Positions 18,001-21,000 of a stretch of 23,913 bases of DNA are shown piece by piece (the stretch's first letter is position 1; each line of letters starts with the position of its first letter). Location of the stretch: contig JANLSU010000086.1 of assembly GCA_031362565.1 (NCBI GenBank), positions 1-23,913 on the forward strand, read 5' to 3'. The position numbers are program-made. The DNA comes from a bacterium. GTDB taxonomy: Bacteria; Krumholzibacteriota; Krumholzibacteriia; G020349025.

Positions 18001-21000
18001 CCGTCGCCGGCCACGGCGCGTGGACCGCGTGGAGTTCTTGTTCGGGTGCGAGCAGAATGCAGAGCACAACGCGCTCACTCGGAGCGCCGGCCTGTGGTGC
18101 CACCTTGTCAGCGACCCCGGGCGCTGTCGCACGCGCGGCGGCCGCGGCACTTTGCAGGCGCGCCGCAGTGACGCGCACGCGCAGGGTCGCCGCGAGCGCC
18201 GTGGACGGCGCCACACCCATGCTCATCAAGACGGCAACGAGGAAAAAACGTGCAATCGGCATTGCACGGGCCGTGGTAGGAACGGCGCGCGACGCAACCG
18301 CAGGCATACAGCGAGGCTCCTTCGGTGTCCGACGAATCACGGGACCATCAAGCGGTCCCGACACACGGGAGCAGTGGTTCGCGAGTCTGCGCCTCCGGAT
18401 TGGAAGAAACGAGCCAGCCAGAACGAACCTCCAGACTGTACCATTCCAGGCGTTCTCGTGCAATGGGCTACGAGCTAACCACCATTTTCACAACTCATTG
18501 CAGCAATCGGCTCGGGAAGGACTCTGGAAGGGTCCAGGGTGGCGTGTCAGGTCGGAATGTTGCACGTTGCCGCCGGTCGTGCCGGGGGGTTCGGTTCAGA
18601 CCGCGGCCGCGCGCCGCGTCGCCTCGAACCCATGCTGGCGCAGCAGCGCGTCGAGTGCTTCGCACGCGGTTGCAGCGGACCGCACCCGGTATTCGACCGC
18701 CTGCTCGCGTCCGAGCCGGACGAGGAACAGGGCGCCAAAAACGGAGATCTCGCACACCACACCCAACGCGTCGCGGAACCGCAAGCCGAAAGCCCCGACC
18801 TCCGGTTCGAGCCCTGGGGTGATCGCGAGGACACGGCGCACGAACCGTGCAAGCAGCGGCGCACACTCCAGATCCTGGATTTCATCCAAGTACAGGGCGA
18901 CCGCTTCAGACATGCGCCGCACCTCCGCGTCCAAGCCCGGCGAGTAGCGCTTGGGCAAGACTTTCGAAAACGCGCGCCGCGGGGTGATCCGGTTCGATCG
19001 CCGCGAGAGCGAGTTGCGGATGCAACGCATACGCCGGAACACGCGCCCAGGCGGGACGTGGGGTGGCGGAGGACGGCCCCCATTCGAGCCCGTGCACCGG
19101 CACCGAGTCGAGCCCCCCGGACAGCGCCGCGGCCGGCTGTGCATCACCCTTGAAGACTCGAATCGCGACATCCACGGCCGGCACTTGCGGCGCCAGCTCA
19201 GGCGTTGTGGCGACTCGCGCCGCGGGCCGGAGCCGGTCGCCGCGGCGGGCCGTTTTCATCCAGGCCTCGAACATCGGACTTTGCGTTGCGGCGCGCTCCA
19301 TGGTCGTCACCGCCGGCGGCAGCGCGAGTGCCGGCGCGAGCCGCTGCAACTCGGATTGCGCCTCCTGCATCGGCAGGCGCACCAAAACCGCGTCGGCGGC
19401 GCGCACGACCGCGTCCAGTTCGGCAAGCGCCCATGCGGTGCCATTCACGACGCCGATCCCCAAGACGCCGCGTTCGACACGCAGGCCCGGTGCGTCGCCA
19501 AGACCGTTCAAGTATGCGAGCGGGTGCAGGCCGAGCCGAAAACCAGGATTCGGCAATGCCGGGTCCGCGTCGAGCACGATCGTCTTTCGACCCAGACGCG
19601 TCATCTGAATCGCCAGATTCGCGCAGACCTCGGAATCGACGAGCGCGTCACCGCTCGCCAACACCGCAATGCGCAGACAACGCCGCGCCGCGGCGGTCGG
19701 CGGTGCCGGTGCCGGCCGGTTCGACAGGTACAGATGAGAGATATCGCGCAGGCGCCGCGTGCCACTGCGCGGCGACCGCGGCTCGGGCTGTCCGTCATAC
19801 GCCACTTCGCCCCGCCCCGCCCCCTCGATCACTGCGCGCCCCACGCACTCTTGTCAGATGACGACGACGGAATTCTCCTGGCCGTATTCGTTCGTGATGC
19901 TCTCGGGGTTGTTCGGGTCCTTGACCCAGACGCCATCGAGGATGAAGCGATACTCGTGTACACCAGGCCCGATATCGAGGACGCCGCTCCAGGTGCCGGC
20001 GTCGTCGCGCTCGAGCGGCGTGCCCTCGTACGACCAGCCGGTGAATTCGCCGGTGATCCGCACATCCTGCGCCTGACGCGCGTCAATGCTGAAGCGCACC
20101 CCACCGGCAACGGCGCGCGGGCCCTCGAATACCGCATCCTGATTCCGATTCCCTGCCACCTGAAAGAAGGGCTCCTGGGCCAAAAGTTCCTCGGCCAGTG
20201 CCAGGAATTCCTTGGCGGCGCGGTTGTGCGAGTCGAACCGGACGATCGGTTGGCCGCGACTCGCGGCCTCCTTCAGCTTCACGGTGTGGCTGATGCAGGT
20301 CTTCAGCATCGAGTCGCCGTGGAAGTTCTCGATCTCGTACAGGATGTCGCGCGAGAAATTCGTCCGGCTGTTGTAGTTGTTCGCCAACACCCGAATGACC
20401 ACATCGTGGCCGATTTCGTCGCGCAAGAGCTCGATCGTTTCGCGGACCTTGTGCAACCCGTGCAACGAGAAGAAACTCGGGTCGACCGGAATGACAGTCT
20501 CGCCCGACGCTGCAAGGGCGTTGAACGTCAGGAGCCCGATGCTCGGCGGACAATCGATCACCACGTAGTCATAGGCTTTTCGCAGTCGCGATAGTTTCGC
20601 GGCCAGGCGCTGCTCACGCCCCGGTTTGTCGGCCAGCTCCTGTTCGACACCCGCCAGCACGACCGTCGACGGCGCGAGATCCAGGTTCTCGAGAACCGGA
20701 ATGACGATGTCGTCAATTTCGACGCCGGGCTGCATCAGCACGTCGTGCATGCTGCGATCGAAGTCATCGGAATCGATGTTCAACCCGAGACCCGCATGAC
20801 CCTGCGGATCCAAATCGATCAGTAGAACCAGTTTGCCTTTCTTGGCGAGCGCCGCAGCCAAATTGATGGATACGGTCGTCTTGCCGCAGCCACCCTTCTG
20901 GTTCACCACCGAGAGAATACGCATCGGTGCTCCTTTTTCGACTTCCGCCCCCTGCACCCCCGCCTCACCACACACCCACCCTGACTCGACTCGACCGGTA

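Follow-up and report, generated by a model that had tools for sequence, protein, structure and literature searches.

In a window of 23,913 nt, the whole stretch of DNA analysed here, we identified a gene (P0001) encoding a complete ParA/MinD ATPase fused to a C-terminal CBM48/AMPK-beta-type module. The gene heads an operon whose second product (P0002) has a ParA/MinD fold that lacks the Walker A motif. Our favoured reading, held tentatively and at somewhat less than even confidence, is an orphan ParA module that would hold glycogen (alpha-glucan) on the nucleoid, its release timed by P0002.

The operon consists of three ORFs lying head to tail on the minus strand in the order P0001, P0002, P0003 (Table 1). 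An AAGGAG sequence lies 7 nt before the P0001 ATG, and a consensus scan of the operon strand found neither a sigma-70 promoter nor a terminator. The preliminary description of this DNA had proposed a conserved operon, and for the second gene this was borne out: in 65/85 loci, an ORF matching the P0002-family profile (built from 55 of the 65 matching rows) began between -82 and +95 nt relative to the stop of ParA. The third small gene was found in a narrower set, its profile (built from 29 of the 49 matching rows) matching in 49/85 loci; it is not universal, and a membrane protein takes its place in family f4. Of the 80 loci with enough upstream sequence, 74 had a same-strand DUF212 gene immediately before the fusion gene. 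We rejected it as a functional partner, as it was also found in 26/32 genomes without the fusion and was not found in four sampled fusion carriers of family f1.

Table 1. Positions of the operon, its genes and their domains within the window.
Feature	Positions	Strand	Details
P0001 (g02419), ParA-CBM48 fusion gene	19854..20924	(-)	356 aa + stop, ATG; from ORF and translation, Pfam
ATPase domain, P0001 residues 1-250	20175..20924	(-)	Walker A NQKGGCGKTT; K10, K15, D39, D124; best solved relative 8RAY
Variable linker, P0001 residues 251-273 (about 25 residues)	20106..20174	(-)	poorly conserved columns in a 59-sequence alignment
CBM48/AMPK-beta-type module, P0001 residues 274-356	19854..20105	(-)	site W297, R326, W333, Y347, N351; C-terminal motif NEYGQENS; from Pfam and AMPK alignment
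P0002 (g02418)	18906..19844	(-)	312 aa, GTG; starts 9 nt past P0001 stop
Conserved N-terminal peptide of P0002, residues 31-41	19722..19754	(-)	RLRDISHLYLS; lone well-conserved stretch of family
P0003 (g02417)	18596..18913	(-)	105 aa; 8-nt overlap with P0002 end
Intergenic region 5' of P0001, presumed promoter region	20925..21184	(-)	260 nt, contains ribosome-binding site AAGGAG

Both its motif and its profile scores placed P0001 in the deviant Walker A family (xKGGxGK[ST] with the signature lysine). Pfam AAA_31 matched residues 1-173 (E 1.1e-52; 179 bits vs a cut-off of 27), CbiA scored 74.7 bits (cut-off 25.4), ParA scored 40.8 bits over residues 2-246 (cut-off 27.1), and CBP_BcsQ matched at E 8.3e-17. 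Residue conservation was counted over 85 aligned fusion copies. K10, K15, D39 and D124 were invariant (85/85) and T16 was present in 84/85; we take D39 (DLDPQ) to be the Walker A'/switch aspartate and D124 (VVIDCPP) the Walker B aspartate. The ORF, the Pfam scores over their cut-offs and the invariant catalytic residues confirm the earlier claim of a complete ParA/MinD ATPase with a C-terminal CBM48.

The closest solved relative of P0001 was the chromosomal ParA of M. xanthus (8RAY; E 1.6e-51, residues 2-250). R187, a basic residue at a DNA-binding position of chromosomal ParA, was retained in 82/85 copies, and K216 aligned to M. xanthus ParA R238, with an inferred numbering offset for that alignment. 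The R238E variant of M. xanthus ParA loses non-specific DNA binding. With basic residues at non-specific DNA-binding positions, P0001 has the character of a nucleoid-binding ParA and is predicted to bind DNA in the same way. It does not score as a partition ParA: its match to the NCBIfam ParA_partition equivalog reached 126.6 bits, under the cut-off of 180, and no ParB-type gene lies beside it. A separate canonical ParA-ParB pair, including the sole ParB_N of the genome, is located on contig C43, and P0001 is 37% identical to this chromosomal ParA of its own genome. P0001 is therefore an orphan, extra ParA copy.

The C-terminal module matched Pfam AMPK1_CBM at residues 284-355 (E 3.7e-11; 43.5 bits vs a cut-off of 26.8) and CBM_48 at residues 274-332 (E 5.3e-7; 30.3 bits vs 22.4), and it aligned to the CBM chains of AMPK beta-1 and beta-2 at E 7e-10 to 2e-8. 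W297, R326 and W333 aligned to AMPK beta-1 W100, K126 and W133, and the counterpart of AMPK N150, presumably a sugar-contacting residue, was also retained. W297, W333, G348, N351 and S352 were present in 85/85 copies, so the two sugar-stacking tryptophans reported earlier are indeed kept; position 326 was R in 76 and K in 7 of the 85 copies, and the C-terminal NEFGQENS motif of the fusion family showed extreme conservation. PMC6274970 reports that mutating W100, K126 or W133 of AMPK beta-1 abolished or weakened glycogen binding, and the AMPK CBM is described as a glycogen sensor in PMC2642990 and PMC6274970. Among the 150 best relatives of the module, 20 were scanned, and three of these were GH57 enzymes carrying a related CBM (P0131, 41% identity; P0224; P0261). 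The CBM of P0001 is predicted to bind alpha-glucan. CBM48-like and AMPK1_CBM modules are very common in the phylum and occur in varied contexts, exported proteins included.

P0002 gave a single faint Pfam match (CbiA, E 0.078). Its AlphaFold model (pLDDT 78, pTM 0.74) retrieved 41 Foldseek matches at E <= 1e-3, led by MinD 1hyq (E 6e-6) and followed by FlhG, Soj and BcsQ, and its nearest Atlas clusters were CbiA/BcsQ/ParA (score 0.95). These results bear out the suggestion that the second gene encodes a ParA/MinD fold lacking the Walker A; we regard P0002 as a pseudo-ATPase and as the probable partner or regulator of P0001. Mean column identity in the P0002 family was 16%, and the only well-conserved stretch was an N-terminal peptide with the consensus RxLRDISHLYLS, or RPHHISSIAHLFL and the like in other families. 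N-terminal peptides of ParB, McdB and PomX dock on their ParA-type dimer and tune its ATPase; the P0002 peptide most probably plays the same part on the P0001 dimer. A second carrier of the peptide in the genome would have pointed to the cargo; a strict match against the six-frame translation of the whole genome found none. In genome G078, a second copy carries the P0002-type N-terminus fused to an NrfD-like membrane domain. Complex prediction from the P0001 and P0002 alignments scored 0.00 in both runs, which were made without controls and count neither for nor against a contact.

P0003 is, by its overlap with the end of P0002, translationally coupled to that gene. No Pfam family matched it. 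Its predicted model (pLDDT 91.6) is that of an alpha/beta protein, for which Foldseek found nothing at E <= 1e-3; weak resemblance was seen to YdhG/DUF1801 and frataxin-like folds (best E 0.039, TM 0.63-0.65).

Of the 121 genomes sampled from the phylum, the window's own included, 89 carried the fusion, with all nine families represented, when presence was defined by a match at E <= 2.3e-68; two of the 89 copies are incomplete (G075, at a contig end, and G120, residues 82-355 only). The 32 other genomes had the chromosomal ParA alone (best E 1e-32 to 1e-54). A complementary distribution of MinD and the fusion was considered and discarded, as MinD was found in 0/121 genomes. The best 120 database homologues of P0001 all combined ParA-type families with CBM_48, and every organism named was of the Krumholzibacteria or Krumholzibacteriota. 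The preliminary description had met only Krumholzibacteria among the organism names given, which is true of the top of the homologue list and not of the family's range: a protein-atlas lead placed this domain arrangement in Myxococcota, Thermodesulfobacteriota and Omnitrophota as well, so that it probably extends past Krumholzibacteriota. This lead is the one source for the wider range, because the other cross-phylum searches did not extend it. In a profile search of genome contigs with the C-terminal alignment, the best 80 of 571 relatives were all relatives of the query (41-71% identity, full or near-full coverage), and those whose titles name a phylum were mostly Krumholzibacteria or Latescibacterota. 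A region search with P0001 residues 262-356 returned 23 close relatives and nothing wider, and tandem-CBM proteins dominated a representative-library search with the module. Our literature search found no publication on a ParA joined to CBM48 or on a glycogen-granule ParA.

We then compared the fusion with the glycogen genes of the same genomes. GT5 or GH57 genes occurred in 82/89 fusion genomes vs 20/32 fusion-less genomes, an association that is weak, as relatives cannot be counted as independent cases. GT5, GH57, GH13 and phosphorylase genes are all present in the window's own genome. The fusion is not restricted to genomes with recognisable glycogen genes: GT5, GH57, GH13 and GT35 were not found in 7/89 fusion genomes, belonging to seven genera (G022, G028, G035, G060, G078, G111 and G115) and 86-96% complete, while the positive controls for the GH13 and phosphorylase searches (G000, G029 and G094) all scored. 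In these seven, GT5 searches gave nothing beyond a 49-residue remnant in G078 and GH57 searches nothing beyond an E 7e-5 match in G111; five of them, tested against the G029 transferase, gave a generic best match (28-34% identity). The CBM was as conserved as elsewhere in six of the seven (for G078, copy 1; the G115 copy lies outside the alignment). Of the 12 genera in which no glycogen enzyme was recognised, seven have kept the fusion and it is missing from five. Since the system survives in some lineages that have no glycogen genes, glycogen can hardly be its sole ligand or purpose.

A glycogen cluster adjoins the operon in 2/85 loci. Downstream of ParA-CBM in G029, and in the same orientation, come genes for a small CBM48 protein, two GT4/GT5-like transferases, a GH57 branching enzyme, an alpha-glucan phosphorylase, a second GH57 and a GH77. 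In G078, where the cluster is truncated, that small CBM protein (59% identity) comes next after the operon, and then residues 1-103 of the transferase. The same glycogen cluster, headed by that small protein, was also found in G027, G011 and G094. The small protein and the ParA CBM share the signature W..K..W..NEFGxxNS, which is absent from exported CBM-like proteins. In the other 83/85 loci, a tblastn search of about 9 kb around the gene gave no match to the GH57, phosphorylase or GH77 of G029. The proposal of a glycogen granule as cargo thus stands in part: the retained sugar-site residues, the GH57 relatives and the two linked loci speak for it, whereas the seven fusion genomes without glycogen genes and the 83 unlinked loci speak against it.

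Other neighbours varied between families, and no cargo gene was kept beside the operon across them. In families f4 and f6, the same-strand genes that come after ParA-CBM and gene 2 encode a bitopic membrane protein, a Wzy_C-like protein, a GT4 and a WecA-like transferase; these genes overlap one another by about 4 nt and begin 39-152 nt from gene 2; a protease-like gene and ClpB were found in f3, and a C25 peptidase in f1. In genomes without glycogen genes, CBM48-like modules occur in exported proteins and in a glycoside-hydrolase-like protein of 969 aa encoded beside a polysaccharide flippase gene.

Because the system persists, with its CBM intact, in genomes without glycogen enzymes, its core job may be independent of glycogen. 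ParA and P0002 might position a different target, for instance the division site or some protein or membrane complex that P0002 specifies, with the CBM acting as an AMPK-beta-like sensor that couples positioning or division to carbon reserves; glycogen or oligosaccharide binding would then modulate ParA dimerisation or ATPase activity. With MinD in 0/121 genomes of the phylum (E <= 1e-30), division-site placement has no assigned system, but the 32/121 genomes without the fusion likewise lack MinD. The fold and genome-unique peptide of P0002 give it the look of a dedicated partner, its N-terminus recurs on the NrfD-like membrane domain of G078, and the sensing role described for the AMPK CBM (PMC2642990; PMC6274970) offers a model. 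However, a sensor deprived of its ligand would be expected to decay in glycogen-free lineages, where the CBM is still intact, and the lack of a conserved cargo gene beside the operon counts against this explanation too. We consider it rather unlikely.

The envelope genes of f4 and f6 suggest another ligand. BcsQ, a ParA/MinD relative, places or organises cellulose synthase, and the CBM of P0001 could similarly bind a nascent or lipid-linked envelope polysaccharide or exopolysaccharide at the inner membrane face, so that ParA would place a polysaccharide assembly machine. Such a role would account for retention without glycogen genes, and it fits both the same-strand Wzy_C-like, GT4 and WecA-like neighbours and the CBM48-like modules on exported and flippase-adjoining proteins of glycogen-free genomes. 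Yet the envelope neighbours occur in some families only, at a distance from gene 2, and f3 and f1 differ; the site residues of ParA-CBM agree with those of AMPK and of the CBM in the glycogen cluster and differ from the exported variants; and P0001 is nearest to nucleoid-binding chromosomal ParA, with no membrane-targeting helix in the place of the CBM. We judge this role unlikely. It is improbable that the module is a beta-sandwich for protein contact (for example with P0002 or P0003) that binds no sugar, since its conserved positions are exactly those at which AMPK beta stacks on sugar or hydrogen-bonds to it, and since relatives of the module sit on alpha-glucan enzymes, although the AMPK1_CBM fold is very common in the phylum in varied contexts and the conservation of NEFGQENS could equally mark a protein interface.

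In the nucleoid-held glycogen model that we favour, P0001 would act as an active ParA whose ATP-bound dimers bind the nucleoid non-specifically, like chromosomal ParA, with each subunit presenting an alpha-glucan-type CBM48 on a flexible linker. The two CBMs of a DNA-bound dimer would hold glycogen (alpha-glucan) particles on the nucleoid, as the direct, adaptor-free binding proposed in the preliminary description would have it. The catalytically dead P0002 would dock its N-terminal peptide on the dimer and control ATP hydrolysis, upon which the particles would be let go. Particles would spread along the nucleoid and be inherited by both daughters, with no polar collecting. A bolder version, doubtful but conceivable, is a ParA that does its own cargo recognition: its DNA-bound, ATP-locked dimers would grip glycogen through two built-in CBM48s while a dead paralogue with a ParB-like N-terminal peptide times release, so that the store is actively spaced on the nucleoid and partitioned when the cell divides, in a module perhaps shared by Krumholzibacteriota, Myxococcota, Thermodesulfobacteriota and Omnitrophota.

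ParA/MinD ATPases are general bacterial positioning machines, and to our knowledge a separate adaptor recognises the cargo in every studied case. If our model is correct, P0001 would be the first ParA to read its own cargo directly, through a built-in polysaccharide-binding module, and the first active placement system for a carbohydrate store. Its pairing with a catalytically dead paralogue that bears a partner-type peptide is, taken by itself, an uncommon form of regulation, and the fusion family seems to be widespread and unstudied. As the system is kept without glycogen enzymes in some lineages, the true ligand may also be something not yet considered.

Compared with known systems, P0001 shares with chromosomal ParA/Soj the ATPase domain, the deviant Walker A lysine and the basic residues at DNA positions (over residues 2-250: 8RAY, E 1.6e-51; T. 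thermophilus 1WCV, 1.1e-36; H. pylori 6IUB, 1.6e-35), but it is a second copy, has no ParB neighbour and carries an added CBM48. The orphan ParA systems that position cargo, McdA/McdB (carboxysomes), PomXYZ, ParC/ParP and PpfA, rely on a partner protein to recognise it. Like the McdA/McdB type, the present system pairs an extra ParA with a dedicated neighbouring partner bearing a short conserved N-terminal peptide, and a nucleoid-matrix mechanism would be expected; unlike it, the ATPase itself carries the ligand module and the partner is a degenerate ParA fold, and McdA (PDB 6NON/6NOO) matched P0001 at E 6e-11 only. The module retains the counterparts of W100, K126, W133 and N150 of the AMPK beta CBM48, but it is bacterial, sits on a P-loop ATPase rather than a kinase scaffold, and has a predicted ligand. 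BcsQ likewise ties a ParA/MinD fold to a polysaccharide, but P0001 scored 80.5 bits vs the NCBIfam BcsQ equivalog cut-off of 157.85 and has no bcs genes nearby. We know of no dedicated glycogen-positioning protein described in E. coli. PhaM and PhaF, which are not ATPases, tether polyhydroxyalkanoate granules to the nucleoid. In E. coli, according to PMC12706056, glycogen forms polar condensates, and its bodies shift the nucleoid and skew division. PhaM/PhaF and polar glycogen represent the same problem of placing storage bodies relative to the nucleoid and sharing them between daughters; unlike PhaM/PhaF, the tether proposed here would be an ATP-driven ParA.

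The window carries three consecutive minus-strand ORFs, which encode the ParA-CBM48 fusion P0001 (g02419), the gene 2 product P0002 (g02418) and the gene 3 product P0003 (g02417). The N-terminal part of P0001 matched AAA_31 (residues 1-173, E 1.1e-52), CbiA and ParA (2-246), and its tail matched AMPK1_CBM (284-355, E 3.7e-11) and CBM_48 (274-332, E 5.3e-7), all exceeding the curated Pfam cut-offs. P0002 gave ParA/MinD matches below threshold only (CbiA, E 0.078; minD_arch, E 0.0036), and the Pfam search with P0003 returned no match. These matches and the ORF coordinates agree with the preliminary description of the operon and its domains. 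A P0002 profile match lay directly downstream of the fusion in 65 of 85 loci and a P0003 profile match occurred in 49 of the 85, the profiles having been built from 55 and 29, respectively, of the same 85 rows scored. In family f4, gene 3 is replaced by a protein of ~200 aa that has a signal peptide and a membrane anchor at its C terminus.

Coordinates of the operon, its neighbours and related loci
Feature	Location	Strand	Remarks
P0001	19854-20924	-	356 aa; ATG start; AAGGAG 7 nt upstream
P0002	18906-19844	-	312 aa; GTG start, 9 nt past P0001 stop
P0003	18596-18913	-	105 aa; 8-nt overlap with end of P0002
DUF212 (divergent PAP2) membrane protein	window 21185-21613	-	directly upstream of P0001, same strand
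Peptidase C25 (gingipain-type) protein	window 13682-18463	-	1593 aa; directly downstream of operon
Sigma-54 activator with GAF domain	392-2365	-	
Ser/Thr kinase with TPR repeats	2185-5460	+	1091 aa
GAF protein	5289-6320	+	
Zinc-ribbon-FHA protein	6615-6998	+	
Third orphan ParA-like gene	G000:C123:91516-92256 (L003:1498-2238)		246 aa; own genome
G029 glycogen cluster	L038:7967-17877		also G027:C61, G011:C19, G094:C81
Gene 2 of second G078 fusion locus	L040:5000-6940	-	646-aa ORF
f4/f6 envelope-type genes	L082-L117		about 1-5 kb downstream of ParA-CBM
Exported CBM48-like proteins	L122:2093-4147, L123:4826-6871, L125:4966-7053		about 685 aa

P0001 is additional to the chromosomal ParA. The canonical ParA of its genome (5.4 Mb, 133 contigs) is encoded on contig C43 directly beside the sole ParB_N domain of the genome, and shares 37% identity with P0001. 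The genome also encodes ApbC/Mrp (contig C116) and a third orphan ParA-like protein, upstream of which a gene encodes an anti-sigma-factor-antagonist (STAS) domain protein of 491 aa. In 121 sampled genomes of the phylum, no match to MinD (TIGR01968) reached E <= 1e-30. The closest solved structures to the ATPase domain were the M. xanthus chromosomal ParA (8RAY, E 1.6e-51) and Soj proteins, and the score against the NCBIfam ParA_partition equivalog was 126.6 bits, under the cut-off of 180. Across 85 fusion copies from 84 genomes, K10, K15, D39 and D124 were invariant and R187 was retained in 82. K216 paired in the alignment with M. xanthus ParA R238, the residue-numbering offset being inferred; one study reports that the R238E variant loses non-specific DNA binding (10.1101/2025.03.14.642875). 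With its invariant catalytic residues, R187 and the K216/R238 match, P0001 therefore has the requirements of an ATP-dependent, nucleoid-binding ParA, and we infer from sequence that it is apparently active as one.

The C-terminal module aligned with the AMPK beta-1/beta-2 CBM at E 7e-10 to 2e-8, with W297, R326, W333, Y347 and N351 of P0001 corresponding to W100, K126, W133, L146 and N150, the last two of which we take to be sugar-site positions. W297, W333, N351, G348 and S352 were invariant among the 85 copies; position 326 was R in 76 and K in 7, position 347 was F/Y in 80, and the module ranked among the best-conserved regions of P0001. Work on AMPK beta (PMC6274970) describes a complete loss of glycogen binding in W100G and K126Q and weaker binding in W133L. 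At E <= 1e-3, a representative library contained 8403 relatives of the module; 20 of the best 150 were scanned, and these comprised tandem CBM48 proteins and three GH57 enzymes with two or three copies (P0131, P0224 and P0261). Judged by its sequence, the module is a genuine alpha-glucan-type CBM48.

P0002 had been described as looking like a ParA fold without a Walker A motif, and its structural matches and sequence uphold this. Its predicted model (pLDDT 78, pTM 0.74) resembled MinD, FlhG, Soj, BcsQ and NifH-type structures (best 1hyq, E 6e-6; 41 matches at E <= 1e-3), a protein atlas placed it among CbiA/BcsQ/ParA clusters (score 0.95), and ASGDALVDSE stands at the position of the ParA NQKGGCGKTT. 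P0002 is thus predicted to be a ParA fold unable to bind ATP in the usual manner. In an alignment with 54 positional homologues (mean column identity 16%), the sole strongly conserved stretch was an N-terminal peptide with basic residues ahead of it, which reads R-x-[LI]-R-D-[IV]-[SA]-H-L-[YF]-L-S in f1, f3, f5 and f8 and R-x-H-H-I-x-x-[IV]-A-H-[HL]-F-[LF] in f4 and others; a six-frame translation of the whole genome contained it once, in P0002. The 646-aa gene 2 product of the second G078 locus has a P0002-type peptide, DIAHLYIS, at residue 26 near its start and an NrfD-like polytopic membrane domain at its end (Pfam NrfD 296-588, E 9e-19). The P0003 model was very confident (pLDDT 91.6), with weak resemblance only to YdhG/DUF1801/frataxin-like folds.

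Several observations count for glycogen as the cargo, beginning with the conserved sugar-site residues of the fusion. In G029, the genes downstream of the fusion on its own strand encode, in order, a 125-aa CBM48 protein, two GT4/GT5-like transferases (Glyco_transf_5 E 1e-15 and 9e-22), a BE_C-bearing GH57 branching enzyme, an alpha-glucan phosphorylase (DUF3417), another GH57 and GH77, with GH13 farther along. Families f5 and f8, which have no canonical GlgA, carry this type of cluster as an alternative set of glycogen genes. The small CBM protein, which might associate with granules or serve in priming, heads the same cluster in G027, G011 and G094, there away from the fusion; in G078 the fusion, gene 2 and gene 3 are followed by a version 59% identical to that of G029, after which the transferase is reduced to its first 103 residues. 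The small protein and the fusion share a W..K..W..NEFGxxNS signature, parts of which the phylum's exported CBM-like proteins do not have. Among the latter, the conserved ~685-aa proteins have an N-terminal CBM48-like module without the NEFGxxNS loop, and their operon also encodes DUF4388 (PATAN-like) and several uncharacterised proteins, in genomes without glycogen enzymes; at locus L124, a polysaccharide flippase gene adjoins that of a ~969-aa protein, which has a CBM48 at its C terminus and weakly matches an MGH1-like glycoside hydrolase. The most likely mechanism, which we advance tentatively, is that P0001 would tether glycogen particles to the nucleoid in an ATP-dependent manner and that P0002 would control their release.

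What weighs most against the glycogen reading is the retention of intact systems by lineages without recognisable glycogen enzymes. Seven genomes of seven genera (G022, G028, G035, G060, G078, G111 and G115; 86-96% complete) kept the fusion, and searches of these seven gave no GT5 match except the G078 remnant, no GH57 match except in G111 (E 7e-5), and neither GH13 nor phosphorylase; G000, G029 and G094 scored as positive controls in the same searches. In five of the seven, the G029 transferase found nothing closer than a generic GT4 (28-34% identity). The CBM was unchanged at every site position in six of the seven (G115 is not in the 85-copy alignment), the lone exception being R326Q, at the Lys126-equivalent position, in the second G078 copy. 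The fusion was kept in 7 and absent from 5 of 12 genera without recognisable glycogen enzymes, and about 11 glycogen-positive genera were without it. GT5 or GH57 genes were present in 82/89 genomes with the fusion versus 20/32 without, which counts for glycogen, but the co-occurrence is weak because related genomes are not independent. At 83/85 loci, none of the G029 glycogen enzymes had a homologue within about 9 kb. A positioning system for another target, in which the CBM would be a carbon-store sensor, is a less likely rival reading.

The conserved neighbours of the fusion vary by family. DUF212 immediately preceded the fusion, in the same orientation, in 74 of the 80 loci whose upstream sequence was long enough. 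It was also present in 26/32 genomes without the fusion and was not found in four sampled f1 relatives, so DUF212 and the fusion are conserved neighbours that do not co-vary. Downstream neighbours were a matrixin-like protein and ClpB in f3, and in f1, the family of the window, the C25 peptidase, which also has fn3, FG-GAP repeats and a FlgD_ig/CHU_C-type C-terminal secretion domain and recurs in relatives from f1 and at some f3 loci. A signalling cluster occupies 392-6998 of the window. In f4 and f6 the downstream genes form a tight Wzy_C/GT4/WecA-like operon, and a link of the fusion to a glycan other than glycogen, or to a machine for envelope polysaccharide, seems somewhat less probable again than a sensor role. 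At these loci the YdhG-like gene 3 is absent and a ~200-aa bitopic membrane protein stands instead, followed with 4-nt overlaps by a Wzy_C-like protein and GT4, and further on by a WecA-like transferase, a methyltransferase and a 470-aa protein of no known kind. That the CBM is purely a protein-interaction module is, beside its conserved sugar site, very improbable.

The fusion was present in 89 of 121 sampled genomes and in all 9 families (f1 5/5, own genome counted; f2 5/9; f3 24/25; f4 31/49; f5 4/12; f6 8/8; f7 4/4; f8 7/8; f9 1/1), and the 32 genomes without it group by genus. Atlas clusters in which 98-100% of members have both AAA_31 and AMPK1_CBM, or names citing both, had Myxococcota (90 members), Thermodesulfobacteriota (50) and Omnitrophota (95 and 89) as commonest recorded phyla, with fragments from Planctomycetota too; this cluster listing is a lead that the architecture may extend beyond Krumholzibacteria, and searches aimed at such loci yielded mainly Krumholzibacteria.

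The literature search returned no paper linking ParA to CBM48 or glycogen. In ParB and other partners, N-terminal peptides contact ParA, as the M. xanthus study describes (10.1101/2025.03.14.642875), and by analogy the P0002 peptide may be a contact that regulates P0001. The operon anatomy is solid and unusual: an orphan nucleoid-type ParA with its own putative alpha-glucan-type CBM48, together with a predicted dead ParA paralogue that bears a partner-type peptide.
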